The notes under the pieces were generated by a model, which made no database searches, was not told the DNA's origin, and worked only from the letters and a program-made list of their open reading frames with translations. DNA of 64,000 nt from Candidatus Methanogaster sp. (GTDB lineage: Archaea; Halobacteriota; Methanosarcinia; Methanosarcinales; Methanogasteraceae): contig PQXF01000002.1 in the NCBI GenBank assembly GCA_003194445.1, positions 148,116-212,115 on the forward strand, read 5' to 3'. Positions 12,577-29,038 of this stretch are shown here, one piece after another (position 1 is the stretch's first letter; every line of letters starts with the position of its first letter). The translations under genes and the position numbers were made by a program.

Positions 12577-12648
12577 GGGCCGATAGATCAGGGGTAGATT
12601 GCTTCCTTGGCATGGAAGAGGCCTCGGGTTCGATTCCCGATCGGTCCA
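12577..12648 (+). tRNA. tRNA-Ala(GGC)
   Basis: Cloverleaf; anticodon arm CTTCC-TTGGCAT-GGAAG; GGTTCGATTCC. Confidence 0.92.
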
Positions 12649-12664
12649 TCACGCGTTAACCCCA

Positions 12665-12749
12665 GCGGGGGTTGCCCAGCCAGGTCAAAGGCGCTAGGTT
12701 CAGGGCCTAGTCTCGCAGGAGTTCGTGGGTTCGAATCCCACCCCCCGCA
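12665..12749 (+). tRNA. tRNA-Leu(CAG)
   Basis: 85 nt with long variable arm; CTAGG-TTCAGGG-CCTAG; GGTTCGAATCC. Confidence 0.92.
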
Positions 12750-12883
12750 TCAGGTTGTATTTTTTTGGATGGTTTTACCAACAGCAGGATTCGCTCTGCA
12801 CCGGAATCAATATGGAATTTAAGCACAGTCCCGGAGCCCGCAGCGTTTCTTGGTTGCGACAGGGTTTCCATAGTCTCTCGAAA

Positions 12884-13159
12884 TCAAACAGTTGCGACCC
12901 CGGGAGGCTTGATGGTTGCGATTTTCTCTGTATATCCGGTACTTCCTCGCCGATACCTCACTGACGTTCTCACCCCGATGATAGTAATGCCCACGATCTC
13001 GTCCTGTTCTTCATCGTACCGCATGATAACACCATTGCCGATATCCACACCAACGGCTGGTCTCGGTGCTCCAAAACTTATGTATAAAACGTCAGCTTCA
13101 CTATCATAATCCCATTCCATGTTTTTTTCTTTTGAAATAAATTTTTTTACCGATGCCAT
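12884..13159 (-). CDS. DUF2283-family protein (putative antitoxin)
   Basis: YDSEADVLYISF...IVGITIIG signature. Confidence 0.8.
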   Translation of the reverse strand: MASVKKFISKEKNMEWDYDSEADVLYISFGAPRPAVGVDIGNGVIMRYDEEQDEIVGITIIGVRTSVRYRRGSTGYTEKIATIKPPGVATV

Positions 13160-13459
13160 ATTAGCCGCCTCCATTTTGCCGGTTTGGTTGTGAAATATGA
13201 TGTAATCACAAAGCCATCCATCTCAGAGATTTCTTTATACACCACTAACAAATATTTGGAAGTTAATGGTGTTTTTTCTATAGTATCTTATTGCTATCAA
13301 CTCCCCCCAATCACCTTCTTGTACAAAATCAGGATTGCTTATGGTTTATAGAATTTTATTCTTTTCAGTTCTCAATTCCGGATGTCTCTCCATGATATGA
13401 GTCCATCGTTCATTGGTCAGTCTTATAGGTATATCTTTCACTGAAGTACTGATAAACAT
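13147..13459 (-). pseudogene. Inactivated RelE/DUF4258-like toxin partner of DUF2283
   Basis: MFISTSVKDIPIRLTNERWTHIMERHPE...KIL*TISNPD..., then a frameshift in an A-run to ...KYLLVVYKE...GFVITSYFT. Confidence 0.7.
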
Positions 13460-13464
13460 TTTTG

Positions 13465-13500
13465 AAAAAAGAAAAGTTGGAAGGGAGGATATCTCCCTTC
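13465..13500 (-). terminator. Terminator of the S-layer gene
   Basis: GAAGGGAG/CTCCCTTC hairpin followed by a T-tract on the minus strand. Confidence 0.65.
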
Positions 13501-13512
13501 ACAGGGTCTCAC

Positions 13513-14922
13513 TCACTCTCGCTGTCTAAGTACCAGATATGCGACTGCAAGCAGTCCGGCAATTGCGAAGATTGACTCGAAACCTGGAGTCTTCTTATCG
13601 GTTGCTGTCTCTGTAGGTGATGTCGTCGGTTCAGCTGTTGCTGTCTCTACAGCTGGTGCTGTCGGTTCAGGTGTCGGTGTGACTACCTCGGTCGGAGTTA
13701 CGTTCGCTTCCGGAGTCGGGGTCTCGATTGGAGTCTCGTTCTTCTCCGGTTCGACTCCACCCTCGCCGATGGTGTACTCAACGAACGGGTAGAACCTGAT
13801 ATGGTCGTTAACGTCATCGTCCGCAGTCTCGAAGTACATATTGCCCATGATATGTTCTGTGGTGTCTAGATCGAGATCGAGGGTAGTCTCATCGTTCGTG
13901 AGTCTTATGCCCTTCTTGGTTGCAGACATCACTTCCATGGCACCATATGTATCACTGGTGTCGATCTCAATGACATCCTCATCGATCAGGAAGACGTACA
14001 TGATCTGCACGACATTGCTGTCGGTTCCTCTGAACACAGCATCTACATAGCAGGAGAACACCGGAATATCAGTCTCGCCTGCAAGGTCTACTGTGTATGT
14101 GTAGACGCGCTCCTGTGATCTATCTCCTCCGGTTGTTGCCACTTCATTATCGAGCTCCCTGCCGTCTTTCTTCAATGAGAACCAGACCTTGTTACCTTCG
14201 AGATCGATCTGGTTTGCAGTGAGGCTGTATCCGCTGCCAAGATCCCATTCCTCGCCAGTTGACAGTGTCTTCTTGTCGTCATCCTCAAACTCAACAAGCA
14301 GTTTGCAGAGTTCGTCGGCATTGCCATCGATTGCTATATACTTTTCTGCCATCCAGCCCTCGATGAAGTATCCACAGTCACCACCAGCATTGTCACTTTC
14401 GACACATAATCCTGTTGAGTTAGGTCCTTGTTCAAGATACTGAGCATATTCTTCCTCCATCTTGGTTTGGCCTCTGCTTGGGTCTGGTTCAATATCTTGA
14501 TGCAGCTCATACTCCTGGAACACCGAATGCGTGGTGTATACCAAACCACCTTCAGCGATTTCTCGACTACCACCATATGCCAGTGGGCTCCCAGAATCAG
14601 GTGGTGTCTCCAAGATTGTCATATTCTCGGTCTGCAGATCGTCATCCAGATCATACCAGAAACCAGCGAATGAGCTGTAGTCCCATTGAAATCCGGGCTG
14701 ATCCCCGTCCAAATACACATCTCCATCTAATACGTAGAGGGGTGCTCCTGTTGAGTTTGCGATGGTATCGTTATCCGCATCCAGTTCTGCGATGGTACCG
14801 CGAACCTCGATCGAACCCACGGATGTTACCTCCTCATCAGCACTTGCTGCACTCGCTGCACCGACCATAGCCAGTACCATCAGTGCGACCAATGCCAATG
14901 GTAATATTATCTTCTTATTCAT
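13513..14922 (-). CDS. Methanosarcinales-type S-layer protein (DUF1608-like) with PGF-CTERM
   Basis: Signal peptide, EVRG...FAGFWYDLDD motif, acidic composition, PT-rich linker, TPGFESIFAIAGLL C-terminus. Confidence 0.9.
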   Translation of the reverse strand: MNKKIILPLALVALMVLAMVGAASAASADEEVTSVGSIEVRGTIAELDADNDTIANSTGAPLYVLDGDVYLDGDQPGFQWDYSSFAGFWYDLDDDLQTENMTILETPPDSGSPLAYGGSREIAEGGLVYTTHSVFQEYELHQDIEPDPSRGQTKMEEEYAQYLEQGPNSTGLCVESDNAGGDCGYFIEGWMAEKYIAIDGNADELCKLLVEFEDDDKKTLSTGEEWDLGSGYSLTANQIDLEGNKVWFSLKKDGRELDNEVATTGGDRSQERVYTYTVDLAGETDIPVFSCYVDAVFRGTDSNVVQIMYVFLIDEDVIEIDTSDTYGAMEVMSATKKGIRLTNDETTLDLDLDTTEHIMGNMYFETADDDVNDHIRFYPFVEYTIGEGGVEPEKNETPIETPTPEANVTPTEVVTPTPEPTAPAVETATAEPTTSPTETATDKKTPGFESIFAIAGLLAVAYLVLRQRE

Positions 14923-14957
14923 GTCTATTTACCTCCTATATTGTTTGTTGTATTGCT

Positions 14958-15137
14958 TCCATCTTCGTTGAACCGCGTAAAACCGCGGTTGTCTGTGGTG
15001 ATTGTGACTTGCACAGCCATCACGCACCTTCCAGTTCAACAGAACCGAAAGGGCTTCATCACCCTCGTATCCCGTCATATTTGGATTACGTAGTCGTAAT
15101 TGGCATCTACCACTTAAATGCTTTGTGGTCAAAATCC
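14958..15137 (-). promoter_or_regulatory. S-layer promoter and long leader (repeat A, native copy)
   Basis: Minus-strand TTTAAG at 15113-15118, ATTACG-N4-CGTAAT palindrome at 15085-15100, stem-loops; copies at 16.7, 17.9 and 25.4 kb. Confidence 0.65.
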
Positions 15138-15257
15138 TCGGTGTTCTCGGCGGTCAATCTCCTTCGCCATGATCCACTTACCGGGGAAGATCAAAAAGTA
15201 TCAGAACCGGTCAAAAACCCTTACGTTCCCGGTTCTCTCAACCATCGCACCCACCTC

Positions 15258-15707
15258 CTACACCCCCACAGGACTCTCCCGCAGCCAGTCGATGTCTGAC
15301 TGGTACAGCTTCCGAGAGATCCCTTAGCCCCAGCCGCAGCATCGCAACCCTGCTGACGCCAAGCCCCATGCAAACACAGGACACTCGATGCCAAGCGGTG
15401 CTGACACCTCATCCCGGAATATCCCTGCTCCGCCAAGTTCGACCCATCCGAGACCATCGACATAGACCTCTGGCTCAACAGACGGCTCAGTGTAGGGGAA
15501 GTACCCAGGTCTGAACCGCACATCCTTAAAGCCGATATGGTGGTAGAACTCGACAAGATACCCGGGGAAGGTTGGCAAACGAGACTCCAGGGTCCATCAC
15601 CGCGCCTTCGAGCTGCTCAAACTCGGGCGTATGCGTCGGATCGATCGCCTCACGCCGGTAGACCCGGTCGATGCAGAACGCCTTTTTCGGAGGATCGGGG
15701 TTGTCTG
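15258..15707 (-). pseudogene. pheS: pheS 3' fragment, copy 1 (cut by IS remnant)
   Basis: [17 protein letters not shown]...WLRESPVGV* with frameshifts. Confidence 0.92.
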
Positions 15708-16276
15708 TTGTTTACGAGAAAAATACAGAAGCGATTAAAAAGGCAATGCTGACAGATGGTATTTGGATGCTGGTCACGAACATCTGTGAAACTACGGAAC
15801 CTGCGGAGTATAGACTGGGTCCCAGGAACTTATCAAGGCATACAGGGATAAAAATAGGGTAGAGGAAGGATTCAAAGAAGTGAAATCATTCCTTAAGTTC
15901 CAGCCGACATTTGTTTACACGAAGGAACATGTCCGCGCACATTATACAATATGCATTTTGAGTTATCTGATGGATGTAACTATCACTAACAAGCTCAGGG
16001 AAAATATGATTGAAGGTGTGAGTAGTGTGAATAAAATGTATCGTATACTGGAGAGATGTGAAATTGGAAAGTTAGGTCTGAAGGGAGACAAATCTCGGAT
16101 ACTGAAACTTACGACCATGACAAATGTGCAAAAAAACATTCTGGAGATCTTCAATTGCAAATATTTGGGAATGAACAGCCATTCAAAATCAATTGGGGTT
16201 AAGAGGATGTAGAACAGATTTGAAAATTGGTGTGGTCTGTGGATAGCGTTTTTTTATTCATAGTGGCGAAGATGGG
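15708..16276 (+). mobile_element. IS1634-like transposase C-terminal remnant and right end
   Basis: DGIWMLVTN...YRDKNRVEEGFKEVKSFLKFQPTFVYTKEHVRAHYTICILSY with a frameshift; ends ...ggcgaagatggg. Confidence 0.72.
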
Positions 16277-16687
16277 TTTTATCAGCGTATACGCATACTT
16301 GCCCAATGTTCTATTATAATACATGTCCATGAAACAATTACCTTTCAGAACAATCTTGATCTTTGTTCTCAGGTTCTCAGCGGTTTCTGCAAAATCGTAC
16401 TCTCTGATGAATGTTTTTGCTGCGTTAACACCTTTCATCCTTTTCAAACTCTCTAATTCCTCGTATGCGTTTCTGTATTCGATGGATTTCTCCCAGTTCG
16501 GATGTTCTGGTAGCTCTGCATTGGCTATTTTGGATTCAAACTCTATGAGGTCGCCGTATTTAGATCTGAATTTTTTTAGTACCAGTTCATAGAACTCCAT
16601 CTCCGCAGCTATCGTTTCATCTACATTGAGAATAACATCTTTCTCAATAATGTTTGCCGCTCTCATTGTTTTCATGTTGTTTTCCAT
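16277..16687 (-). pseudogene. Fused and truncated copy of the antitoxin + DUF6516-like toxin pair
   Basis: Homologous to ~24955-25385; a 23-bp deletion fuses the frames; 3' half replaced by the IS. Confidence 0.85.
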
Positions 16688-16857
16688 GTTTGTTAAACCG
16701 CATTACGTTGTTGTCTGTTACGTTGTTGTCTGTGGTGATTGTGACTTGCACAGCCATACGCACCTTCCTGTTCAACAGAACCGAAAAAGCTCCATCACCC
16801 TCGTATCATAGCATATTTGGATTACGTAGTCGTAATTGGCATTTACTACTTAAATGC
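16678..16857 (-). repeat. Repeat A copy 2 (S-layer promoter/leader)
   Basis: gttgtctgtggtgattgtgacttgcacagccat...attacgtagtcgtaattggc...cttaaatgc. Confidence 0.9.
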
Positions 16858-17065
16858 GGCACTGTTCAGAAATCTAGTGATGGTCAAATTTCTCATTTCA
16901 TCGCCCAATATTTTCATTTCTGTTGCGTATAGCCAAAAACCGCAAAATAAGCGATTTAGCAGAAACAAACACATATCCGTAGCTATCCAAGATTGCAGTG
17001 CGTCGACGATTAAGAAGATTCTGAAAATAGTACTTCATTCCATCACTAGAAAATCGAACAGTGCC
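16858..17065. mobile_element. 208-bp MITE, copy 1
   Basis: TIR GGCACTGTTC...GAACAGTGCC; 8-bp target duplication TTAAATGC. Confidence 0.9.
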
Positions 17066-17162
17066 TTAAATGCTTTCTGGTCGAAATATTGGTGGGTGGC
17101 GGGCGCACGGTGTGGATGGCGTGAGAAATCGGCACGATCTGAATATATAATCGATTCTGTAC

Positions 17163-17618
17163 TCATATCTCTCTGTTAGTTTCTATCCCATCCAGCAGGC
17201 AAACATCTTCGATAAATCTCTTTGGAGAAATAAAATTAACATAATCCTTGATTTTCATCTGAGTCAATCTCCGATTCACTGTGACAAAATATTCGCTCTC
17301 GCCAGCAAAATAACTGCATACGTGAGGAATATCATCGATATCTGCAACGAAACCACCCCATTCATCCATAAACAGATTCCATTCGAGATCATAAATTATC
17401 TCGGACTTTGGTATGGACAGGAGGTATAATCGCACTTTTGATGCGCAATCCTTGCCTTTGTTTGATTTAAACCACGTAAGTGCTTCATCGAATAAGTAAT
17501 CACTCAATATAACCTTGATATTTCCTTTTTTAACTTCTTCCAGCAAGAGTTTGCTATTGGTATCAGTAGAGAGAAGTCCAATGATGTAGATGTTTGTATC
17601 AAGATAAACGCGTGGCAT
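17163..17618 (-). CDS. PIN-domain (VapC-like) toxin
   Basis: MPRVYLDTNIYI...DIDDIPHV...YFVTVNR. Confidence 0.82.
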   Translation of the reverse strand: MPRVYLDTNIYIIGLLSTDTNSKLLLEEVKKGNIKVILSDYLFDEALTWFKSNKGKDCASKVRLYLLSIPKSEIIYDLEWNLFMDEWGGFVADIDDIPHVCSYFAGESEYFVTVNRRLTQMKIKDYVNFISPKRFIEDVCLLDGIETNREI

Positions 17619-17880
17619 ACTCACTCCACAGCCTCTTTCTGATATTTTTAATCTCTGTAAGGAGATTGTCCACATCCTTATCCGAGAGTTGTGCCATCGG
17701 GTATGCTTTCTCACCAAATTCTTTTAAAAGTAGTTCGTTAATGGTCTTTTTAATAGAAAATATTACAAATTCGCCCCTGCTTTTAAATTCGCCGAGTTCC
17801 ACAAAACGATCTATCAGTATTGAATCTTTCGTAGAGACTTTGATAGTGGTGGAATCAGTACTTACCATCATGTTTTCCAT
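17599..17880 (-). CDS. RHH/CopG-like antitoxin
   Basis: IDRFVELGEFKSRGEFV motif; overlaps the PIN start. Confidence 0.72.
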   Translation of the reverse strand: MENMMVSTDSTTIKVSTKDSILIDRFVELGEFKSRGEFVIFSIKKTINELLLKEFGEKAYPMAQLSDKDVDNLLTEIKNIRKRLWSEYATRLS

Positions 17881-18051
17881 CTTCGTTGAACTGCATTACA
17901 CGGTTGTCTGTGGTGATTGTGACGCATGCAGCCATCACGCACCCTTATATTCAACGTTAACCGAAAAGGGTGCAATCACCTCGTATCCCGCCATATTTGG
18001 ATTACGTAGTCTCAATTGGTATCTACCACTTAAATGCTTTGTGGTCAAAAT
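17876..18051 (-). repeat. Repeat A copy 3; homology to 14958-15257 continues to 18173
   Basis: tccatcttcgttgaac...gttgtctgtggtgattgtgac...ccacttaaatgctttgtggtcaaaatcc. Confidence 0.9.
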
Positions 18052-18173
18052 CCTCGGTGTTCTTGGCGGTCAATCTCCTTCGCCATGATCCACTTACCGG
18101 GGAAGATCAAAAAGTATCAGAACCGGTCAAAGACCCTCACGTCTCCGGTCTTCTCAACCATCGCGCCCACCTC

Positions 18174-19207
18174 CTATACCTCCACAGGACTCTCCCGCAG
18201 CCAGTCGATGTCTGACCGGTACAGCTTACGAGAGATCCCTTAGCCCCAGCCGCAGCATCACAACCCTGCTACGCCAAGCCCCCACGCAAGCACAGGACAC
18301 TCAATGTCAAGCGGTGCTGTCACCTCCTCCCGGAATATCCCGGCACCGTCAAGTTCGACCCATCCGAGACCCTCGACATAGACCTCCGGTTCAACAGACG
18401 GCTCAGTGTAGGGGAAGTACCCTGGTCTGAATCGCACATCCTTAAATCCGATATAATGACACAACTCGACAAGATACCCGGGGAAGATTGGCAAACGAGA
18501 CTCCAGGGTCCATCACCGCGCCTTCGAGCTGCTCAAACTCGAGGTGTATGCGTCGGATCGATCGCCTAGCGCCGGTAGACCCGGTCGATGCAGAACGCCT
18601 TTCTCGGAGGATCGGGGTTGTCTGCAAGATGTTTGATCGTGATCGCGGTCGTTTGGGTACGCAAGACCTCTTTTCGGGTTAACTCCTTATGGCTCCATCT
18701 CCCGCCCCAGCCTGTTGATCCGGTATCTCCACCGAACTCGTGGACGTCTCTTACGTCCCCATAATATGTAGGGATATCCGCAATCAGAATCGAGATAGAA
18801 CGTGTCCTGCATCTCCCTGGCAGGATGGTCCTGCGGCTGGAAGAGCGCATCGAAGTTCCGGAAGGAACTCTGCACGATATCACCCTTGATCTCGGTAAAT
18901 CCCATATCGAGCAGTATCCTGCGCATCCGGTAGATCAGACGCTGGTACGGGTGAATCTTCGCGCAAGACGCCAGCGGCACCGGTGCATGGATATCATAAG
19001 CACGGATCTTCTCCCATCTGCGGCTGCGTATGGCGTCAGACGTTAGTTGCACGATCTCATCGATATCTGACTGGTCCGCAATCGCACCCGCGAGTTTTGT
19101 ACCTTCTTCTGTTATTGCAATTGTTCTCTCCTTTCTCTCTGCCCCGTCCTCCAGTTTTCGCTCGGTGAGGTCTTTTAATACCTTCTTCTGTGCATCTTCT
19201 GCCAGAA
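18174..19207 (-). pseudogene. pheS: pheS 3' fragment, copy 2
   Basis: Matches 26546-27573 with several frameshifts; ends RESPVEV*. Confidence 0.95.
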
Positions 19208-19210
19208 TGG

Positions 19211-19418
19211 GGCACTGTTCAATTTTCTAGTGATGGAATGAAGTACTATTTTCGGAATCCCCTCGATCGCCGACGCGCTGCAATCCTGGATAGCTACGAA
19301 TATACGTTTGTTTCTGCTAAATCGCTTATTTTACGGCTTTTGGCTAGATGCAACAGAAATAAAAAGGTTGGACGATGAACTGGAAAACTTAGCTATCACT
19401 AGATTTCTGAACAGTGCC
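19211..19418. mobile_element. 208-bp MITE, copy 2 (inverted relative to copy 1, no TSD)
   Basis: Same TIRs and length; internal sequence is a diverged reverse complement of 16858-17065. Confidence 0.88.
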
Positions 19419-19851
19419 TAGATGAGCGGATGACATGAATTTTAGCAGGTTACTTTCCGGCAAGCCCTAAGTTTGTGCATCGAAACACTTAATTATTCAT
19501 AAACCAACCATATACATGAAAAGGTATAAAATTTCTACTTTTATTCATATGCAAAACTTAAAAATCACGCGCTGGTATGTTTCTACCAATCCTCGATAAT
19601 TTGCGTTTTTAGATGGTAAGGTACGGGCTTATCTGTTTTTGTGCGTCTGGTACCTTCCCTCGGCTTTATTTTAGCCGATGTGTTGGCTTTTAAGTGGATA
19701 TATGGGGTTCCATCCGCGATTTCATCGCTCCGACGGGTGGTCGCGTCTCGCGGTATGGCTGCCCCAGCCCGCAAACTCTCGCCGGAAGTCGCACCACTCC
19801 AGCCGGTCAAGCAGCAAAAAGTTTATGACCGCCCGCGAAAAAGTTGATTTG

Positions 19852-20373
19852 ATGAATAAGATAATAGCCACGGTCTCCGGAAAGATCCAGAATGTGGGAT
19901 ACCGGGCAAAGGTCATCGGGATCGCAAAAGACTTCGGATTGACTGGATTTGTCCTGAATCTCGATGACGGGCGAGTTCGGATAATAGCGGAAGGTAAAAA
20001 CGGAGATTTTGGAAAGTTTCTCGATGCAATACGGATTAAAAATACACTTATCGATGTCGCAGATGTCGAAGTCGAACATGCTGACGCCACTGGAGATTTA
20101 GCGGACTTCTATAAACTCGTGGGGGAAGGAGAGACTGATGAGCGGCTGGATAAAGCATCGGACTATCTCAAGGAACTGATTGAGGTCATGAGAGCCGGAT
20201 TTGGAAGTCTCGAATCCAAGATGGACGTGATGATCGAGAAGCAGGACGTGATGATCGACGAGACCCGTGGTTTGCGAGAAGACCTGAAGGGGTACATGGA
20301 CATGAAATTCGGGAAGATCGATGGAGAGCTGGACTTGATAAAAGGTGCATTAAAAGAGCGCGGAATACTGTGA
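19852..20373 (+). CDS. Acylphosphatase-domain protein with a C-terminal coiled coil
   Basis: VSGKIQNVGYR...GLTGFVLNLDDGRV; heptad-like tail. Confidence 0.82.
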   Translation: MNKIIATVSGKIQNVGYRAKVIGIAKDFGLTGFVLNLDDGRVRIIAEGKNGDFGKFLDAIRIKNTLIDVADVEVEHADATGDLADFYKLVGEGETDERLDKASDYLKELIEVMRAGFGSLESKMDVMIEKQDVMIDETRGLREDLKGYMDMKFGKIDGELDLIKGALKERGIL

Positions 20374-20944
20374 TAGGGCTTGATTGACACCGTACCACCC
20401 CCACCCGCCGCAGGATCAGACCCCTGGATTTGAACAAAACCCCGAATCTCTCCGTGATTGAAGGACTACCTGACAGGCAGGTGTTACCGACACCTGAGCA
20501 ACAGGCTATCGCCCCCCATCGCCTACAGTGCGACCTCTGAACCATCATCCAGACCGTACATCTTTGCAATTTGCGCAGGTAGGGTGATGCATAAACTTAA
20601 TTTGCTGCACCGCCTCACCTTGATTTTAATGCTCATGGTGTGGTGATATCACCTTTGCCGGCATAAACATATCGGCATAGGTGTATCCCACATTCCACAG
20701 GTCGCCATTTATTTTCCATAATTTCTACTGATAGAGGTTTTAAATATCTAAAAATTATTATTTTTATACTGTGGTGGCACAACCTACCCAATTTCAACAG
20801 CGGATGCTTTACATGCTTATGTAAAAAATATGTATTTCAATAAATAGATTATCTTTAAAAACAAAAAATCACAAGCGATATCCACTATTCACCATTTACA
20901 AAAAAAAACAGATCTTTTTGCAAAAACACGTGCGGAATGTCAGG

Positions 20945-21013
20945 TGCATCATCAAGGTCTTGCTCTGCCTGACGAAGCCATCTTCATCCTTCATCCATCG
21001 CATCAGGGTTCAT
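20945..21013 (-). pseudogene. N-terminal stub of a HEPN toxin
   Basis: Near-identical to 26077-26145, then cut at ...gtgcggaatgtcagg (possible IS end). Confidence 0.8.
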
Positions 21014-21350
21014 ACAGTATTTTCCCCTCCTTTACAGCATTCATAACAGAAACATTCGTATTTTTCATCGCTTCAAATTCCTCTGGCGTATATACGAGAA
21101 TATCCAGAGCGACATTCGGAACCAATGTTGAATAAATCTCATCCAACCGATCGAGAAACTTTTTTTTCGTCCCTTTCACGATGATCATACCTATATCACT
21201 TGTTGCGCTTATATCACCTCTTGCCAATGAGCCAAATAACATGATAAACTTGATCTCTTTGTCTTTTTTTAGTGCGTTAATTATCCTACCGAGTTCACGC
21301 ACGAGTTCCTTTTTCCTCGCTTCTTTTTTCGATCGATTATTTCTTTCCAA
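21003..21350 (-). CDS. Minimal nucleotidyltransferase (MNT) antitoxin, copy 2
   Basis: LFGSLARGD...SDIG: second catalytic Asp is Gly, versus SDID in 26135-26482. Confidence 0.85.
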
Positions 21351-21413
21351 ACAACATCACCTCCCATCGACGGGATTTTTCATGCTTTTTGATCTTTTCC
21401 GCCATCGCACCCA

Positions 21414-22448
21414 TTACACACAGACCGGACTCTCCCGCAGCCAGTCGATGTCTGACCGGTACAGCTTCCGAGAGATCCCTTAGCCCCAGCCGCAGCATCG
21501 CAACCCTGCTGACGCCAAGTCCCCGTGCAAGCACAGGACACTCGATGCCGAGTGGTGCTGTCACCTCCTCCCGGAATATCCCTGCTCCGCCAAGTTCGAC
21601 CCATCCGAGACCCTCGACATAGACCTCCGGTTCAACAGACGGCTCAGTGTAGGGGAAGTACCCTGGTCTGAATCGCACATCCTTAAATCCGATATAATGA
21701 CACAACTCGACAAGATACCCGGGGAAGATTGGCAAACGAGACTCCAGGGTCCATCACCGCGCCTTCGAGCTGCTCAAACTCGAGGTGTATGCGTCGGATC
21801 GATCGCCTAGCGCCGGTAGACCCGGTCGATGCAGAACGCCTTTCTCGGAGGATCGGGGTTGTCTGCAAGATGTTTGATCGTGATCGCGGTCGTTTGGGTA
21901 CGCAAGACCTCTTTTCGGGTTAACTCCTTATGGCTCCATCTCCCGCCCCAGCCTGTTGATCCGGTATCTCCACCGAACTCGTGGACGTCTCTTACGTCCC
22001 CATAATATGTAGGGATATCCGCAATCAGAATCGAGATAGAACGTGTCCTGCATCTCCCTGGCAGGATGGTCCTGCGGCTGGAAGAGCGCATCGAAGTTCC
22101 GGAAGGAACTCTGCACGATATCACCCTTGATCTCGGTAAATCCCATATCGAGCAGTATCCTGCGCATCCGGTAGATCAGACGCTGGTACGGGTGAATCTT
22201 CGCGCAAGACGCCAGCGGCACCGGTGCATGGATATCATAAGCACGGATCTTCTCCCATCTGCGGCTGCGTATGGCGTCAGACGTTAGTTGCACGATCTCA
22301 TCGATATCTGACTGGTCCGCAATCGCACCCGCGAGTTTTGTACCTTCTTCTGTTATTGCAATTGTTCTCTCCTTTCTCTCTGCCCCGTCCTCCAGTTTTC
22401 GCTTGATGAGGTCTTTTAATACCTTCTTCTGTGCATCTTCTGCTAGAA
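21414..22448 (-). pseudogene. pheS: pheS 3' fragment, copy 3
   Basis: Near-identical to copy 2 at offset 3241 bp, but its 3' end (RESPVCV* + MNT) matches intact pheS. Confidence 0.95.
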
Positions 22449-22676
22449 TGGGGACTGGATTGTGAGAAAAATTAGAAAGCGGAAGAAGTATATAAAGTCA
22501 AAGCATTTGGGACTGCACGGTCAAATCCGGTGGGTGGTGATAGGCACGGTGTGAATGACATGGGGATATGACGTATCTCACTCACATGCATGAACGTATT
22601 TCATTGTGCGAGACCATAAGAAAAACATTCAAGAGTCCGGACGGGTTTCAAACAGACAATGTTTAAATGTAAGGAT
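22449..22676. repeat. Linker repeat B/C with TATA elements
   Basis: 22449-22556 matches 24565-24670; 22524-22676 matches 25527-25686; core also at ~17085-17122. Confidence 0.85.
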
Positions 22677-22693
22677 GCCGTAATTTATACTAT

Positions 22694-23014
22694 ATGGCAT
22701 CCATCGTCTTACCTGAAACCATCGAAAATGAAATTAATGCTCTGGTACGGGGTGGCTATTTCAGAAGCAGAGGCAGTTTCATCGAAGATGCAGTCAAATA
22801 CACGCTGATCAGCCGACAGGATTTGAGGGTCAATGCTGCCATCGAAATGTACCGAAGCGGCAGGGTCAGTTTGGGAAGAGCGACCGAACTGGCAGGCATG
22901 TCAATTTTTGAGTTCAAAGAGATTTTAAAAGAGAGAGGACTAAAAATGAGTGTCGAGGCACCCACTAAAGAAGAGATGGACAGGCAGATAGAAAGATTAG
23001 AAGAATATCGATGA
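22694..23014 (+). CDS. UPF0175-family antitoxin (RHH + HTH)
   Basis: AIEMYRSGRVSLGRATELAGMSIFEF motif. Confidence 0.85.
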   Translation: MASIVLPETIENEINALVRGGYFRSRGSFIEDAVKYTLISRQDLRVNAAIEMYRSGRVSLGRATELAGMSIFEFKEILKERGLKMSVEAPTKEEMDRQIERLEEYR

Positions 23015-23520
23015 TACACATTGTTTTCGATACCGATATATTATCGACATTCGCCAAAGCAGATGCAATTCGATATCTCGAGAGGCTATTCTATGAAGAT
23101 AAGTTGCTGATCACCCCTGCCGTTTATTCGGAGTTGAAGGTACCAAAGGAGTATGGGTATAATTTTCCCGATCTGGTATTCAATTCGGATCGCTTTCAAC
23201 TGGCTCGGTTGACCGATACTGAGGTTGGCGAGTTTAAATCAAACTTAATGCATTTAAGGACGTTACACAGTGGAGAGATTGAAGCAATTACGATTGCAAA
23301 GAGAAGGAGTTACGTGTTCAGCTCCAAGGATGCGAAAGCACTTGAGTATGCAGTATCCCGAGAAGTGGAGGTATTGCATTTACATACCATCCTGAGGGCA
23401 CTGTGGCGATTTGGTGTGCTTACAAAAAAGGAGGTTAAAGAACTTGTGAATGTTATGGAGCAGGAGGACAATATGGTGATCAAGAACAAGGACATGATTT
23501 TTGAGCCTGAAGGTGAGTAG
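23011..23520 (+). CDS. PIN-domain toxin (DUF3368-like)
   Basis: IVFDTDIL...ITPAVYSEL...LHSGEIEAI; ATGA overlap with the antitoxin. Confidence 0.82.
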   Translation: MIHIVFDTDILSTFAKADAIRYLERLFYEDKLLITPAVYSELKVPKEYGYNFPDLVFNSDRFQLARLTDTEVGEFKSNLMHLRTLHSGEIEAITIAKRRSYVFSSKDAKALEYAVSREVEVLHLHTILRALWRFGVLTKKEVKELVNVMEQEDNMVIKNKDMIFEPEGE

Positions 23521-23532
23521 ATTTTTCATCCC

Positions 23533-24564
23533 ATACCTCCACAGGACTCTCCCACAACCAGTCGATGTCTGACCGGTACAGCTTCCGAGAGATCCCTTAG
23601 CCCCAGCCGCAGCATCGCAACCCTGCTGACGCCAAGCCCCCATGCAAGCACAGGATACTCGATGCCAAGCGGTGCGGTCACCTCCTCTCGAAATATCCCG
23701 GCACCGCCAAGTTCGATCCATTCGATGCCATCGACATAGACCTCCGGTTCAACAGACGGCTCAGTGTAGGGGAAGTACCCTGGTCCGAACCGCACATCCT
23801 TAAAGCCGATATGGTGGTAGAACTCGACAAGATACCCCCGGGGAAGGTTGGCAAACGAGACTCCCGGGTCCATCACCACGCCTTCGAGCTGCTCAAACTC
23901 GAGCTGTATGCGTCGGATCGATCGCCTCACGCCGGTAGACCCGGTCGATGCAGAACGCTTTTCTCGGAGGATCCGGGTTGTCTGCAAGATGTTTGATCGT
24001 GATCGCGGTTGTGTGAGTGCGCAAGACCTCTTTTCGGGATAATTCCTTACTCCGGATGCCACCCCAGCCAGTTGAGCCGGTATCGCCGCCGAACTCGTGG
24101 ACGTCTCTTACTTTCCCGTAATATGTAGGGATATCCGCAATCAGAATCGAGATAGAACGTGTCCTGCATCTCCTTGGCAGGATGGTCCTGCGGCTGGAAG
24201 AGCGCATCGAAGTTCCGGAAGGAACTCTGCACGATATCACCCCTGATCTCGGTAAATCCCATATCAAGCAGTATCCTGCGCATCCGGTCGATCAGATGCT
24301 GGTATGGGTGAATCTTCGCGCAAGACGCCAGCGGCACCGGTGCATGGATATTGTAAGCACGGATCTTCTCCCATCTGCGGCTGCGTATGACGTCAGACGT
24401 TAGTTGCACGATCTCATCGATATCTGACTGGTCCGCAATCGCACCCGCGAGTTTTGTGCCTTCTTCTGTTATTGCAATTGTTCTCTCCTTTCTCTCTGCC
24501 CCGTCCTCCAGTTTTCGCTTGATGAGGTCTTTTAATGCCTTCTTCTGTGCATTTTCTGCCAGAA
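23533..24564 (-). pseudogene. pheS: pheS 3' fragment, copy 4
   Basis: Matches 26546-27573; shares frameshifts with copies 2 and 3. Confidence 0.95.
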
Positions 24565-24768
24565 TGGGGACTGGATTGTGAGAAAATTTAGAAAGTGGAA
24601 GAAGTATATAAAGTCAAAACATTTGGGACTACACGGTCAAATCCAGTGGGTGGTGAGAGGCGCGGTGTGATGCAAGATAACAAAAATGCGAAAAACAGAG
24701 AGATCGATGATAAATCGGATTGCAGTCATGTAGCATCGAGCACGTAGCATCTGCATCGATACCATTAT

Positions 24769-25122
24769 CTATGCATGCTCTGCAGTACCGAAGAATTCAT
24801 TCATATAATCTAAAAGGACATATACATCTATTTCCGGATCGCCATTTAATGACGATGAAATTACTTTACCACCTATAGTGTGAAAATGGTGGGGAAAATT
24901 CTCAAGATGCTTATGGTGCGGTGCATTATCCCATCCAGCGACCCTTCTGTTTTCCTTTATCAACGTATACGCATACTTGCCCAATGTTCTATTATAATAC
25001 ATATCCATGAAACAATTACCTTTCAGAACGATCCTGATCTTTGTTCTCAGGTTCTCAGCGGTTTCTGCAAAATAGCACTCTCTGATGAATGTTTTTGCTG
25101 CGTTAATGAGTTTAATATCCAA
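24769..25122 (-). CDS. DUF6516/TumE-like putative toxin
   Basis: GWDNAPHHKHLENFPHHFH motif. Confidence 0.75.
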   Translation of the reverse strand: MDIKLINAAKTFIRECYFAETAENLRTKIRIVLKGNCFMDMYYNRTLGKYAYTLIKENRRVAGWDNAPHHKHLENFPHHFHTIGGKVISSSLNGDPEIDVYVLLDYMNEFFGTAEHA

Positions 25123-25403
25123 TCAAATACACCTTTGATCCTTTTCAAATTCTCTAATTCCTCGTATGCATTTCTGTATTCGATGGATTTCTCCCAGTTT
25201 GGATGTTCTGGTAACTCTGCATTGGCTATTTTGGATTCAAACTCTGTGAGGTCACCATATTTAGATCTGAATTTTTTTAGTATCTGTTCATAGAACTCCA
25301 TCTCCGCAGCTACTGTTTCATCCATGTTGAGAATAACATCTTTCTCAATAATGTTTGCCGCTCTCATCGTTTTCATGTTCTTTTCCTGTTTGCTAAACCG
25401 CAT
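25047..25403 (-). CDS. Putative antitoxin partner of the DUF6516-like protein (start may be ATG near 25376)
   Basis: Helical acidic protein (FRSKYGDLTEFE...WEKSIEY) overlapping the toxin start. Confidence 0.65.
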   Translation of the reverse strand: MRFSKQEKNMKTMRAANIIEKDVILNMDETVAAEMEFYEQILKKFRSKYGDLTEFESKIANAELPEHPNWEKSIEYRNAYEELENLKRIKGVFDWILNSLTQQKHSSESAILQKPLRT

Positions 25404-25526
25404 TGCCCGGTTGTCTGTGGTGATTGTGACTTTTCAACAGAACCGAAAAAGCTTCATCGCCCTCGTATCCCATTATATGTGGATTACATTTGTAATTGGT
25501 ATTTACCATTTAAATGTTTTGTGGAA
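25385..25526 (-). repeat. Repeat A copy 4 (internally deleted)
   Basis: ggttgtctgtggtgattgtgact...caacagaaccgaaaaagcttcatc...ggattacatttgtaattgg...tttaaatg. Confidence 0.85.
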
Positions 25527-25796
25527 AATCCGGTGGGTGGTGATGGGCGCGGTGTGAATGGCACGGGCGTGAAAGCTGGTGGCATATCTCGCTTGCATGG
25601 CGAACGCGTTTCATTGTGCGAGACCATAAGAAAAACATTTAAAGAGTCCGGACGGGTTTCAAACAGACAATGTTTAAATGTAAGGACTTGAACAGTTTTT
25701 AAATTTCCCCTACAACCTGAAATCGATCTCAACAACCTCTCAGCATCTCCTTAAACCCCATCATTTCAAGTGTTCTCATGGACTTTCCCGTCAAAT

Positions 25797-26145
25797 TCAG
25801 GCATCTCTTTTTTCAAACGCCTCTGCCGGTATTCCACCTGGAAGCCCATTCGGATACCTTGTTGGAATAATCATATTTGTCGAGCGTTGCCGCCTCCCTT
25901 CGTATTCGCTCCAGGTCTTTATCCAATGACACGGCTCTTTTACAAAGCTCTGATGCGGAACGTCCCCAAACCATTTCCTCGCCTCTTGCATACAAAAATT
26001 CCTTCAAAGCCTTCTCTGCCGATTGCTGTGAAAGAAAACAAACCAGATGGTATCTGTTCCCTTCCAGGTTATATCATGCATCATCAAGGTCTTGCTCTGC
26101 CTGACGAAGCCATCTTCGTCCTTCGTCCATCGCATCAGGGTTCAT
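25797..26145 (-). pseudogene. HEPN toxin pseudogene
   Basis: WLRQAEQDLDDA*YNLEG...[13 protein letters not shown]..., frameshift, [10 protein letters not shown]. Confidence 0.85.
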
Positions 26146-26482
26146 ACAGCATTTTCCCCTCCTTTACAGCATTCATAACAGAAACATTCGTATTTTTCAT
26201 CGCTTCGAATTCCTCTGGCGTGTATACGAGAATATCCAGAGCTACATTCGGGATTAAGGTTGAATAAATCTCATCCAACCGATCGAGAAACTTTTTTTTC
26301 GTCCCTTTCACGATGATCACATCTATATCACTTGTTGCGCTTATATCACCTCTCGCCAATGAGCCAAATAACATGATCGACCTGATCTCTTTATCTTTTT
26401 TTAGTACGTTAATTATCCTACCGAGTTCACGCACGAGTTCCTTTTTCCTCGCTTCTTTTCTCGATCGATTATTTCTTTCCAA
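26135..26482 (-). CDS. Minimal nucleotidyltransferase (MNT) antitoxin
   Basis: LFGSLARGD...SDIDVIIV...[10 protein letters not shown]. Confidence 0.9.
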   Translation of the reverse strand: MERNNRSRKEARKKELVRELGRIINVLKKDKEIRSIMLFGSLARGDISATSDIDVIIVKGTKKKFLDRLDEIYSTLIPNVALDILVYTPEEFEAMKNTNVSVMNAVKEGKMLYEP

Positions 26483-26545
26483 ACAACATCACCTCCCATC
26501 GACGAGATTTTTCATGCTTTTTGATCTTTTCCGTCATCGCACCCT

Positions 26546-28015
26546 TTACACACAGACCGGACTCTCCCGCAGCCAGTTGATGTCTGACTGGTACAGCTTC
26601 CGCAGATCCCTTAGCCCCAGCCGCAGCATCGCAACCCTGCTGACGCCAAGCCCCCACGCGAGCACAGGACACTCGATGCCAAGCGGTGCTGTCACCTCCT
26701 CCCGGAATATCCCTGCTCCGCCAAGTTCGACCCATCCGAGACCCTCGACATAGACCTCTGGCTCAACAGACGGCTCAGTGTAGGGGAAGTACCCGGGTCT
26801 GAACCGCACATCCTTAAAGCCGATATGGTGGTAGAACTCGACAAGATACCTGAGAAGGTTGGCAAACGAGACTCCCGGGTCCATCACCACGCCTTCGAGC
26901 TGCTCAAACTCTGGCGTATGCGTCGGATCGATCGCCTCACGCCGGTAGACCCGGTCGATGCAGAACGCTTTTTTCGGAGGATCTGGGTTGTCTGCAAGAT
27001 GTTTGATCGTGATCGCGGTCGTGTGAGTACGCAAGACCTCTTTTTGGGATAACTCCTTACTCCAGATGCCACCCCAGCCAGTTGAGCCGGTATCGCCGCC
27101 GAACTCGTGGACGTCTCTTACTTTCCCGTAATATGTAGGGATATCCGCATCAGAATCGAGGTAGAACGTGTCCTGCATCTCCCTGGCAGGATGGTCTTGC
27201 GGCTGGAAGAGCGCATCGAAGTTCCAGAAGGAACTCTGCACGATATCGCCTTTGATCTCGGTAAATCCCATATCAAGCAGTATCCTACGCATCCGGTCGA
27301 TCAGATGCTGGTATGGGTGAATCTTCGCGCAAGACGCCCGCGGCACCGGTGCATGGATATCATAAGCACGGATGTTCTCCCATCTGCGGCTGCGTATGAC
27401 ATCAGACGTCAGTTGCACGATCTCATCGATATCTGACTGGTCTGCGATCGCACCCGCGAGTTTTGTACCTCCTTCGGTTATCACAATCGTCCTCTCTTTT
27501 CTCTCTGCCACATCCACCAGTTTTCGCTTGATGAGGTCTTTTAATGCCTTCTTCTGCGCATCATCTGTCAGAACCTCCTCTTCAAGCAGTATCGCCAGCA
27601 CTTCTTCATCTGCACCCCTCTCTGGTGCCGCATCGCTGGCAGGCACGACCGCACCGTCTACGATCGCTGCCCACTTCTTCCGCCGCAGCCAGCCCATTGA
27701 TATCCCGACCATTGCAGGCGGGAATTTATCTTTCAGGTCCGGAATCGTGACCTTTTCGCTGCACGACTGCAGGTATGAGAGTGTCTGGCGTTCAGGAAGT
27801 CCGCTTCCCGCGTATTCATATCCCTCTTTTGTGAGCGTGTGAATCTCTGTTACCGATTCGTGGATCTCGGCAAGTCCCTTTTCTTCCAGAAGGAAAGCAG
27901 ATTGCATCAAAGCATCCGGATTCAGGTCTGATTCCATCGCAAGTTCAGCTGGCGTCGATCTCTTCAGGTCGTGAAGTGCTGAAAGCACGCGTCTTTCATT
28001 TGGTGTGAGTTGCAT
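26546..28015 (-). CDS. pheS: Phenylalanyl-tRNA synthetase alpha subunit (intact)
   Basis: [30 protein letters not shown] and GAGIFR motifs; 489 aa archaeal length. Confidence 0.97.
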
Positions 28016-28565
28016 GGCGTAATCTTTGTTACTGTTTGCAATATGTATTTCGGACGCCTCAGTCGAGTCTTTTTAATTTCGTCGGGTCGGTTGGAAAACA
28101 TGATGCCAATCCTGCAAACATTGGTATGAAGCGTTTCCGTACCAGAAACCGTGATTGAAGCAATCTCGAATATCTGATATTCCGGGACACAGCGGCATAC
28201 TATATGGTGATGCCAGTTCCCATTTCATGTCCATGCGGAGCTGCTTCGCACAAGAGAGTATCATTTCTCCTATAGAGAATGGTTCTTCTCCACATAAAGA
28301 CGATGCAAGTAGCATTACAGTATCATTCAACAATACCTTCGCCACATTATTCGTCAGTATAACCCGGCTTTTAGCGTTCAGGACCTTAACGCACACTTTG
28401 TAAATAGCAGATATGTTCGCGAAACATTAAAATTACTACCGCAAAAAACCAGACCTGATTCTAATTCAAGAAAGGGGTTGCGGATAACGAAAATCGGCAG
28501 TATTAATGTTGGTTGATGGCGAGGGTATTGATGACACCAACATATTTCCATTGGCAAGGAAACTA

Positions 28566-28825
28566 GTACGTCACGGCGCAAATTTACCCACCATTAAGCA
28601 GCCAAAACTTTGCTTCTATAAGTCCATTTGAAAGGCTTAGCCATCGTGCGGTTAAAGTAGTCGATAAACTCCAGTAGATGAGTTTTGAGGTCTTCTTTGC
28701 TCGTGAAGCTCGCTCTTTTGAGCAATTTTTTGACCAAGATACTGAACTATATTTCAACCTGGTTCATTATAGATTATAACAACGGAACACTATTAAATGG
28801 TATGTAAATTTACGCCCACATGTAC
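28566..28825 (-). mobile_element. Internally deleted IS630-family element
   Basis: Imperfect TIRs gtacgtcacggcgcaaatttac / gtaaatttacgcccacatgtac, TA on both sides; encodes NQVEI*FSIL...YFNRTMAKPFKWTY. Confidence 0.8.
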
Positions 28826-29038
28826 TAGCGGTTCGATACAGCAAGGAAAAAGTACCTTTCCTTCCTGTTTATCCCGAGATGATACGTAGGGAGTAAATCT
28901 TACTCAAAGCTCGCGGAACGGTAAGAACGAGATCATTAATATAGTCCACTCCTTCACAGAGTGATAAAAACGTTTCTTAGAATGTCAAGATAGCGGCTTC
29001 AATGATCCGGGCATCATGAGTTACATAGACTATATCAA

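Follow-up and report, generated by a model that had tools for sequence, protein, structure and literature searches.

Toxin–antitoxin (TA) cassettes lying between direct repeats of the S-layer promoter constitute a family-wide system of ANME-2c archaea, methane consumers of the seafloor: they were found in 11 of the 15 genomes of this family in which the promoter was assembled, and in four genera. The stretch analysed here (64,000 nucleotides, hereafter the window) contains such an array between pheS and the S-layer gene. Probably the array is anchored on the S-layer promoter, and ordinary recombination between promoter copies, RadA-type and short-patch, accounts for the gain, loss and replacement of its cassettes without an integrase. 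TA pairs are reported as enriched in ANME genomes (10.1101/2024.05.23.595608).

Layout and assembly of the array

The order of blocks from pheS to the S-layer gene on the minus strand of the window, as given in the preliminary description, was retrieved again by self-BLAST and sequence inspection (Table 1). The array includes four pheS 3′ pseudogenes (psi-pheS), three extra S-layer promoter copies and six TA pairs. In the self-BLAST comparison the pheS copies were 91–98% alike across 450–1500 bp (E=0), far beyond chance. The locus is chromosomal and adjoins pheS and tRNAs, and the promoter pattern had no matches among viral contigs. The MITE of the window is multi-copy in relatives.

The six TA cassettes counted earlier are present as pairs, but only three are intact (antitoxin–TumE, UPF0175–PIN and RHH–PIN). 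Of the two HEPN genes, the first carries a frameshift and only a stub is left of the second; the antitoxin/DUF6516 (TumE) fusion is the product of a 23-bp deletion and IS truncation. The TA families matched among the adjacent small genes are MNT/HEPN, TumE, PIN, UPF0175 and DUF4258/DUF2283 (predicted TA); the PIN of cassette U has an Atlas feature score of 0.96 and a TM of 0.89 to a DUF3368 PIN. No family match was obtained for the A1 antitoxin (109 aa) or for the 93-aa antitoxin of cassette R, which we take to be RHH-like. The DUF5678–protease pair and cassette N are TA-like by layout only.

Table 1. Features of the pheS–S-layer interval in the window, listed from pheS towards the S-layer gene
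Feature	Positions	Strand	Evidence and remarks
Intact pheS, 489 aa	26546..28015	-	PF01409, E=1.9e-89; anchors the locus upstream in this genus
MNT antitoxin, cassette M	26135..26482	-	PF18765 and PF01909; weak MntA match
HEPN toxin, frameshifted, 3′ end replaced	25797..26145	-	aligned to intact G004 HEPN (PF05168)
Leftover tail of a deleted UPF0175–PIN cassette	25529..25690	-	85% to 22523-22675; ends in motif X (about 25556-25529), X score 34
S-layer promoter and 5′-UTR copy heading cassette A1	25381..25531	-	sequence comparison
Cassette A1, intact	24769..25376	-	109-aa antitoxin candidate 25376-25047; TumE/DUF6516 toxin 25122-24769, PF20126 E=1.2e-13
A1 tail, motif X and first 10 bp of promoter core	24635..24768	-	sequence comparison, X scoring
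IS481-family right end, 5′ junction of psi-pheS4	24564..24634	-	87.5% to end of 1051-bp IS481-like element in G013
psi-pheS4 (pheS nt 443-1460)	23529..24564	-	self-BLAST, alignment to pheS
Cassette U, inverted, intact	22694..23520	+	UPF0175 22694-23014 (PF03683); DUF3368-type PIN 23011-23520
U tail, motif X, core start and second IS481 end	22448..22675	-	sequence comparison, X scoring
psi-pheS3, followed by MNT as after intact pheS	21414..22448	-	psi-pheS3–MNT unit also in G011, 93%
Second MNT and HEPN stub	20945..21350	-	cut by IS-like end at 20944
Acylphosphatase-domain gene region, non-TA passenger	19617..20680	+	copied from contig C11 (84-93%)
MITE copy, in place of IS481 end before psi-pheS2	19211..19418	.	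87% inverted match to 16858-17065
psi-pheS2	18184..19207	-	self-BLAST, alignment to pheS
Host-type spacer (no X) and promoter/UTR copy heading cassette R	17881..18183	-	sequence comparison, X scoring
Cassette R, intact	17163..17880	-	93-aa RHH-like antitoxin; PIN_3 toxin PF13470
R tail, motif X and promoter core as far as TATA box	17066..17162	-	sequence comparison, X scoring
MITE within TATA box of a promoter copy	16858..17065	.	8-bp target duplication GCATTTAA
Remainder of promoter copy and A1-delta	16278..16857	-	antitoxin/TumE fused via 23-bp deletion, then truncated
IS1634 transposase remnant	15708..16281	+	NF033559 E=1.5e-11
psi-pheS1, 5′ end cut by IS1634 remnant	15259..15707	-	self-BLAST, alignment to pheS
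Host spacer (no X), native S-layer promoter and 5′-UTR	14923..15258	-	94% to empty allele of G002
S-layer protein gene with PGF-CTERM	13513..14922	-	PF07752 and PF18204; allele likely exchanged between genera

The locus is repeat-rich and belongs to a metagenome-derived genome, similar blocks occur in relatives as alternative alleles, and the whole array is spanned by no single record, so that the complete block order depends on the assembly. These circumstances would suit an artefact in which strain variants of the pheS–S-layer interval were strung together. Such variants would, however, split the depth of the pheS 5′ part, whereas the eight listed unique pieces have depths of 34.5–42.4 in run X1, possibly the source sample, versus 39.2 for this single-copy part (the summed bin depth is 42.5). 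The X1 contigs have 0 differences to the array pieces and several of them bridge block junctions, and the frameshifts of the psi-pheS copies mark them as something other than alleles of a live pheS. Contigs from runs X3 and X4 of two other studies cover 22282–23587 (X3) and 22553–23587 (X4), as well as 17065–18069 (X3) and 17198–18123 (X4). Because the cassette blocks have single-copy read depth, the array is not a merge of strain variants, an outcome that the preliminary description had allowed for, and an assembly artefact is extremely improbable.

Cassette turnover and transfer between genera

The expectation that cassette content varies was borne out: relatives differ by whole cassettes at promoter repeats and do not carry an identical fixed array. 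The order D-P-S (L063) differs from D-R (L065) and A1-P-S (L071), the shared parts being 97–98% identical; other differing pairs are A1-P-S and A1-A2-S (L077), D-A1-S (L068) and D-S (L078), and U-A1 (L072) and U-S (G004). Near-duplicate loci (L064/L077, L068/L076, L069/L070, G007/G013 C8) make the counts given here and below overstate independence. Empty alleles occur in G002, L067, G022 and G023. The pheS–S-layer interval itself is empty in G002 and L067, holds M-D in G001 and G003, and holds M-U in G004.

Four cassette types (R, P, A2 and N) appear to have crossed genus boundaries recently, while the promoter copies are of host type. Differences at four-fold sites across lineages, the labels of which rest on promoter type for metagenome contigs, amount to 11/77 and 3/75 for R, 7/42 for P, 2/38 for A2 and 1/39 for N, against a pheS divergence of 0.37–0.48 (for R, P and A2, Fisher p 2e-4 to 7e-11). 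Copies of cassette R in two other lineages match that of the window at 94% nucleotide identity. Cassettes A1 and D may be old residents, since their divergence across genera resembles that of pheS (DUF2283 mostly 0.3–0.6, TumE 0.26–0.41); that of DUF4258 is lower, 0.09–0.20.

This resemblance, for A1 and DUF2283, is what would be expected if an old array of fixed multi-cassette content had been passed on vertically and had lost parts through deletion between repeats, with one-off duplications besides. A single master order (M<U<D<R<N<A1<P or A2) also accommodates most of the orders observed, and half of the TA pairs of the window are broken. Yet the divergence of R, N, P and A2 across lineages is much more recent than that of pheS, and heads and cargo have been swapped both ways: in G025 a D head precedes N genes, while G017 has an N head before D genes and, in G017:C41, before U′. 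Besides, D has a remnant of an R tail upstream and an intact R downstream, and G025 has an insert at a place left empty in its congeners G022 and G023. The cross-genus identity of R and N largely refutes the vertical reading, which we consider very unlikely.

It is likely, judging from the tree of its N-terminal part, that the S-layer gene itself was swapped between genera. In conflict with host lineage, this tree groups the window with G013 and two contigs of other lineages (support 100/98), and G002 with G023 (support 100/99). Recombinational switching of S-layer cassettes is reportedly known in Clostridioides difficile. The available part of a study of this species (PMC10100898) describes 14 S-layer cassette types and SlpA as a phage receptor; as in the ANME-2c family, the surface-layer allele varies between lineages, plausibly under virus pressure, but a TA array or promoter repeats are not mentioned there. 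At this locus TA turnover would be linked to the swapping of S-layer alleles, the likely arms race over virus receptors.

Promoter copies, motif X and the route of exchange

Each cassette begins with a head of 24 to about 275 bp, formed by a promoter copy; the TA pair follows, and the tail closes with a C-rich motif, X, directly against the next promoter core. The designation "promoter" rests on the position before the S-layer gene and on the BRE/TATA consensus, to which the core presumably conforms. At a score of at least 18, a threshold reached by 46 of 5000 random genome 34-mers, X precedes 45 of the 46 promoter copies lying behind a cassette tail but none of the 13 with host-type upstream DNA (six empty alleles and seven array heads), and therefore it travels with the cassettes. 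It is conserved over 7–8 unrelated cassette types, yet the native promoter of G000 lacks it; the S-layer gene behind that promoter has very deep coverage in RNA run X6. The separators were not all taken from the two flanking housekeeping loci, as had been supposed: pheS and promoter copies are among them, but the linker core is the cassette-borne motif X.

The promoter copies cluster by host lineage and not by cassette type, and the D-type head has only about 24 bp in common with the host promoter. Junction positions vary along the repeat: they lie in the BRE in G025, inside X in R of G013 and about 70 bp into the head in R of the window. In G025, both junctions of a cross-genus cassette of 98% identity fall within one window of ~12 bp around GACCACAAA. 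Homology of ~12 bp is short for RadA.

The statement that the array contains no integrase was confirmed: G000 has no match to the tyrosine recombinase family PF00589 or the serine recombinase family PF00239, although, this genome being 91.6% complete, one could lie in the unassembled part. The PF00589 search control was positive in 14 of 14 genomes, and only 13 of the 27 family genomes have a match above cut-off. RadA-family genes are present in G000. The dif/pdif modules depend on a Xer recombinase and paired dif sites; the present array differs in that G000 lacks PF00589, and dif-like symmetry was not seen at the repeats by eye. No shared attC-like hairpin was found on 8 strands of 4 repeat copies (z −1.74 to +0.97 in a folding test), and no significant fold in 141-nt stretches covering X or spacer plus core.

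Plain homologous recombination does not explain the conservation of X across cassette types. An enzyme acting in trans might recognise X beside the BRE and insert cassette circles at the S-layer promoter core, longer repeats and mosaics being later homologous touch-ups. The association of X with post-cassette copies, the 24-bp D head and the close junctions in G025 agree with this, as do synteny breaks at CCGACC(AC) in G014 and G021, the joining of the IS481 end at the same GACC, and matches in G000 to Y1-transposases (7), IS110 (2) and Cas1 (3) as possible candidates. Against it, no tyrosine recombinase is common to the family and G000 has neither a tyrosine nor a serine one, the repeats have no attC-like fold, other junctions lie elsewhere in the repeat, and no ORF of a size fitting a recombinase was recognised next to the breaks in G014 and G021. 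Moreover, X may be upstream DNA of a donor lineage, of which no empty allele was found. We regard such an enzyme as unlikely, though far from negligible. The fuller proposition, that X and BRE form the true recombination site of an unknown enzyme, that genes are captured without an integrase of known family, TA cassettes integrating at the transcription-factor site of the S-layer promoter, and that cassettes spread across genera with S-layer allele swaps, is slightly more doubtful still; if the shared cassette end is indeed an enzyme site, this would be a new kind of capture system.

Under the preferred reading, recombination between promoter copies, a cassette would enter a new host at the BRE–TATA core, the best-conserved patch across genera, either as an excised circle or on a donor fragment riding along with an S-layer allele swap. 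The repeats would then be homogenised to host type, and the TA pairs may be kept as addictive passengers of a swap hotspot. It is likely that TA units move between strains and genera by recombination at promoter copies. This suggests a testable route by which TA pairs devoid of their own mobility genes could spread, that is, by carrying a copy of a conserved host promoter and entering at an exchanged locus.

The pheS arms and comparison with known systems

Modules were earlier thought to be taken repeatedly from pheS. Two +1 frameshifts, at pheS nt 1161 and 1412, are common to all four pseudogenes, the three full-length ones start at nt 443, and two of these stand behind one IS481 end, the 71-bp "linker" before psi-pheS3 and psi-pheS4 being the right end of an IS481-family element. 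This indicates a single duplication, and the pheS arms appear to be secondary, a one-off product later re-copied. Since psi-pheS2 and psi-pheS3 have 0 differences across nt 573–1214 and diverge after that, the arms took part in later recombination. It seems that the 3′ kilobase of pheS was duplicated once in this genome, with the IS481 end at the junction, and then decayed; the duplicate was likely re-copied by unequal crossing-over, which would have stacked several pheS-to-S-layer alleles in tandem.

According to the preliminary description, the ~1-kb pheS 3′ arms were reusable recombination modules and one pheS was kept intact. The mosaic tracts among psi copies and pheS accord with that model, as does the wider occurrence of the psi unit: the shared frameshifts and common start recur in G011, and the +1 at nt 1412 in L068/L076. 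G017 offers an independent parallel in two psi-ABC copies, both from nt 377 and with a common 2-nt insertion. However, besides the single origin with an IS end at the junction, a psi copy is present in only 2 of the 12 searched genomes of the genus (drafts 56–94% complete), and cassettes vary without any neighbour-gene arm in L071, G013:C170, G018 and G025. The other three genera have arrays unlinked to pheS; none of the 12 pheS loci fetched there showed an S-layer promoter (several contigs being short). We give the pheS-arm model very little credence. Because of the single psi origin, the arrays unlinked to pheS and the G017 parallel, neighbour-gene arms enlarge the array as a by-product that recurs and are not its engine; of the earlier claim that pheS and promoter modules recombine cassettes, the promoter copies, which delimit cassettes, are what remains.

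The closest known kind is the promoter-repeat shuffling of T4-type phages by PeSL (promoter early stem-loop) cassettes, for which mini-circles are reported from inverse PCR (PMC2839356; PMC4122927). In both cases small genes that vary lie between repeated promoter units, which is where indels between close relatives fall; an integrase was identified in neither, and recombination between the repeats is the proposed route. Unlike PeSL as described there, the ANME array is chromosomal and archaeal, has one anchored site, the promoter of a main surface gene, and lies outside the hyperplastic regions of T4-like phages; it carries almost only TA pairs, a cassette-borne end motif and extra arms from a neighbour gene, moves between genera, and lacks a significant stem-loop, whereas PeSL combines a terminator stem-loop with a promoter. 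Among the contigs covering the ANME array no circle or live event was seen; a circle junction would look there like an ordinary X–core junction. Promoter-repeat cassette shuffling is thus encountered here in a cellular chromosome.

In the minimal mobile elements of Neisseria (PMC3082526), different whole-gene cassettes lie between two conserved genes and are brought in by homologous recombination; the layout fits pheS–S-layer in one genus and ABC gene–S-layer in another. By that definition the Neisseria cassettes are alternatives between flanks, whereas in the ANME family several stand together, separated by internal promoter repeats, and they pass between genera with different upstream flank genes. 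S-layer swaps and mosaics would fit flank-driven incorporation, but cross-genus entry maps to the promoter core.

The array is not an integron. The likeness noted earlier holds for the layout, tandem short ORFs split by a repeated site, shared with integrons and CALINs, including archaeal ones (10.1101/2022.02.06.479319). Integrons possess an IntI tyrosine recombinase (which may be absent in a CALIN) and attC hairpins; G000 has no tyrosine recombinase match, the repeats showed no attC-like single-strand fold, and the repeat is a copy of a host promoter. In the chromosomal TA hotspots of Photorhabdus (PMC13617665), in the portion available, acquisition is linked to transposases and integrases and promoter-repeat framing is not mentioned; as here, TA pairs are concentrated in spots of high turnover, where they decay through pseudogenisation of the toxin and behave as selfish elements. 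The repeat-rich S-layer locus may also account for broken metagenome assemblies at this place.

Structure of the array in the window

A self-BLAST of the window and a reading of its sequence confirmed the order of elements between pheS and the S-layer gene given in the preliminary description. The array includes an intact pheS, four pheS 3' pseudogenes (psi1 to psi4), three extra copies of the S-layer promoter/UTR, two MITEs, an IS1634 remnant and six toxin-antitoxin (TA) pairs. Three of the six pairs are intact; the others are one with a frameshifted HEPN gene, one with the second HEPN gene reduced to a stub, and the last one, which is both fused and truncated. A MITE lies in the TATA box of one promoter copy.

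The cassette types seen across the family, designated by letters, are M (MNT-HEPN, directly after pheS and without a promoter head), U (UPF0175-PIN, inverted), D (DUF4258-DUF2283), R (RHH-like protein and PIN), N (a 99-aa protein and a PIN-like gene, without a family match), A1 and A2 (antitoxin candidate and TumE) and P (DUF5678 and an aspartic-protease-like protein, inverted). An Atlas search with the A1 antitoxin gave nothing at 0.9 or above.

The assembly under study, G000, in which the window occupies positions 148116-212115 of contig C92, comprises 3.6 Mb in 169 contigs and is 91.6% complete. In sequencing run X1, possibly the source sample, the eight listed unique array pieces had a depth of 34.5-42.4 versus 39.2 for the 5' part of pheS, with no differences, and several X1 pieces bridge junctions. 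Strain variants would split that depth; therefore, the array is not an assembly merge, and the concatenation of variants considered in the preliminary description is not borne out. The whole array is spanned by no single record. The stretch from psi3 through the IS end to U is spanned in runs X3 and X4, which come from two other studies, and cassette R is likewise crossed by contigs of both. A further joint in X3/X4 is a weak hint, having 25 letters on one side and a second MNT gene as an equally possible partner. Stretches uncovered in X3, X4 and the RNA run X6 (the pheS 5' part, A1, the S-layer gene and psi copies) were left out as evidence. An Rfam scan of positions 12400-29000 revealed two tRNAs and nothing else.

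Coordinates of features in the window and in related loci
Feature	Sequence	Position	Remark
X1 pieces bridging junctions (examples)	window	15656-16130; 22646-23587; 24518-24993	
psi3-IS end-U, run X3	window	22282-23587	
psi3-IS end-U, run X4	window	22282-22579 and 22553-23587	
Joint in runs X3/X4	window	19416-26263	
Spacer of native promoter	window	15134-15208; 18050-18124	
Lone DUF2283 gene	window	12884-13174	downstream of the S-layer gene, adjoins tRNA-Leu and tRNA-Ala
Acylphosphatase-domain gene region	window	19617-20680	
Second copy of that region	G000:C11	62335-65816	21-bp unit expanded ~16 times in coiled-coil tail
Several short multi-copy elements	window	28064-28830	upstream of pheS; other runs show very high summed depth
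Tandem repeat	window	53431-54554	period ~165 bp
S-layer domain duplicated internally or in tandem	L078; L027	5035-6856; 1236-2448	
Insertion sequences inside cassette genes	L066; L070	877-2050; 500-2100	transposase-like ORFs
Synteny break after ABC gene	G014:C217 (L190)	~1950	
Synteny break after ABC gene	G021:C97 (L191)	~2010	
Tyrosine recombinase and 151-aa gene	L049 (G013:C8)	185-1557	at cassette array end

Duplicated ends of neighbouring genes

All four psi copies have +1 frameshifts at pheS nt 1161 and 1412 in common; psi2 to psi4 also start at nt 443 and have additional common +1 shifts at 866 and 1103. The copies form one clade (100/99) beside the G000 pheS. These sequences trace the pheS arms to one origin. 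The 71 bp ahead of both psi3 and psi4 correspond to the right end of a 1051-bp IS481-like element, which is multi-copy in relatives and of which just these two ends survive in G000. The copies recombined after their origin: psi2 and psi3 are identical over nt 573-1214 but differ at 19 sites in the last 256 nt, and their 3' neighbours are unlike.

A psi copy was found in two of the 12 genomes of the genus, G000 and G011. The G011 unit, at 93%, carries the 1161 and 1412 frameshifts, and the latter is also present in loci L068/L076. The idea of pheS arms as repeatedly reused modules is not upheld as the core mechanism, given the common frameshifts and start and the presence of psi in 2/12 genomes of the genus. 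None of the 12 pheS loci fetched from the other three genera, several of them on short contigs, had the S-layer promoter. The tree groups the G011 psi with the G011 pheS (93/95), which may hint at gene conversion, but it has only three private sites in common with that pheS versus six with the G000 psi copies.

In G017, the ABC-ATPase gene upstream has two pseudogene copies, both starting from nt 377 with a common 2-nt insertion, as well as a third 3' end. These copies are spread over three contigs that also carry D, A1 and U' cassettes; one copy lies ahead of the S-layer promoter. Together, the pheS and ABC arms indicate that the 3' end of a neighbouring gene was duplicated independently in two genera, once in each, and then re-copied.

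A promoter repeat with variable cargo

What extends across the family is the promoter repeat, not the pheS arms. The native promoter region was matched in 17 of 27 family genomes, in two of them by the spacer alone. The native spacer resembles a multi-copy element (26 hits in G024), so that even the empty allele of the genus carries a mobile-element remnant ending at the promoter core (the BRE-TATA stretch). Fifteen family genomes have the core: in 11, one or more TA-type cassettes adjoin a promoter copy, one has head remnants only and three are empty. A metagenome scan yielded 16 loci, some of them near-duplicates, and 15 contained cassettes. As the preliminary description anticipated, cassette content varies between relatives. 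Near-identical strains of one lineage differ by whole cassettes (D-P-S, D-R, A1-P-S and A1-A2-S, where S is the S-layer gene), their common parts being at 96-99%, and the genus of G000 has the alleles D-A1-S, D-S, U-A1 and U-S.

When 151 genomes of the order were searched with loci L071 and L065, the promoter-repeat matches listed were confined to the family (two candidates scored per genome). Among the matches listed, close cassette homologues lay in these arrays, with the exception of two short DUF4258/DUF2283 pieces in G016 and G020. S-layer genes were sought in 10 further family genomes, and none of the three loci checked had the promoter; the promoter pattern had no match in a viral contig collection. 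Within G000, the promoter, UTR and X motifs are confined to the array; the multi-domain S-layer paralogues on contigs C114 and C21 are without the array promoter.

Motif X is C-rich (CACCGCGCCCC..CCACCCACC) and lies immediately before the promoter core in 45 of the 46 copies following a cassette tail versus 0 of 13 with host-type upstream DNA, a count that leaves out one contig-start copy and in which the anchor missed two decayed copies (G015, G017:C129). Of 5000 random 34-mers, 46 scored as high, and a looser pattern gave scattered two-mismatch matches in the 27 family genomes. Given this placement, arrays read host/core - cassette - X/core - S-layer gene, as expected if a host promoter is joined by a unit that contains X and a core. 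The left end of the repeat is tight, ~20-35 bp before the core; the right end is variable, with a reach of 24 bp in D and, at the other extreme, of more than 200 bp into the UTR. X is not a required S-layer promoter element in G000, where the native promoter is without it, and is unlikely to be a cassette terminator, since the inverted cassettes U and P also end in X.

Across lineages, R differs at 11/77 and 3/75 four-fold sites, P at 7/42, A2 at 2/38 and N at 1/39; the corresponding share for pheS is 0.37-0.48. For the most part, A1 and DUF2283 seem to be of the same age as the genera. Promoter copies cluster by host lineage rather than by cargo, and those around R in G013 are identical over 157 bp. 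Heads and cargo were exchanged both ways, with a D head on N genes and an N head on D or U' genes. The majority of observed orders are compatible with a single fixed order, but an R-tail remnant upstream of D with an intact R downstream cannot result from it.

The S-layer gene itself seems to be swapped. The S-layer protein of the window is 65% identical to that of G013 versus 53% to those of the congeners G001 and G002, and a tree of the N-terminal part (13 partly truncated rows) joins different genera with 100/98 and 100/99. The array also collects IS elements.

Mechanism and related systems

The clearest insertion case is G025. In its congeners G022 and G023, the ABC-ATPase gene leads directly to the promoter; in G025, cassette N lies between, its first gene 98% identical to a copy in another lineage and both junctions within ~12 bp around GACCACAAA. 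In G014 and G021, synteny breaks exactly at CCGACC(AC), the core start; following the sequence past the breakpoints, for up to 24 kb and 3 kb respectively, revealed neither an S-layer gene nor a promoter core nor a recognisable integrase.

The description of the array as integrase-free holds for G000, whose 91.6% complete assembly has no PF00589 or PF00239 matches; of the 27 family genomes, 13 have PF00589 above the cut-off. The tyrosine recombinase of G013:C8 was rejected as the array enzyme. It belongs to an element interrupting a DUF4258 gene that is uninterrupted in G007, and has no tblastn match in G000. Action of a site-specific enzyme on the cassettes, which would agree with the 24-bp head, the coinciding G025 junctions and the retention of X across unrelated cargo, is the less likely reading. 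RadA-family genes are present in G000, the repeats do not fold like attC, and junctions are located at several points along the repeat. Together with the lack of both families, this leads us to lean towards recombination by the host between promoter copies, aided by the exchange of S-layer alleles. In such a scheme, TA pairs would be addictive, viruses might drive S-layer swaps, and circles may form. The promoter copies possibly do not drive transcription at the S-layer level: X6 contig depth was 4405-19205 for the S-layer versus 13-25 for cassette and pheS contigs, a hint only, since contig depth poorly measures expression.

Among known systems, the promoter-repeat shuffling of PeSL cassettes in T4-type phages (PMC2839356; PMC4122927) comes closest. 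Minimal mobile elements (PMC3082526) fit at the interval level. Integrons (10.1101/2022.02.06.479319) have the layout in common, but the array differs in integrase and attC fold. TA hotspots (PMC13617665) and C. difficile S-layer cassette types (PMC10100898) are partial analogues. A TA array on S-layer promoter repeats was not found described in the mostly open literature; the array is a real variant of promoter-repeat cassette shuffling, family-wide and apparently undescribed.

In other families of the order, distant homologues of R, D and U have 68-253-bp direct repeats on either side at six of the 20 loci examined (L143, L144, L145, L151, L158 and L159, in G053, G146, G047, G073, G040 and G067, respectively). 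The repeats are neighbouring host DNA, often gene ends, and may reflect a wider habit of insertion with long duplication.
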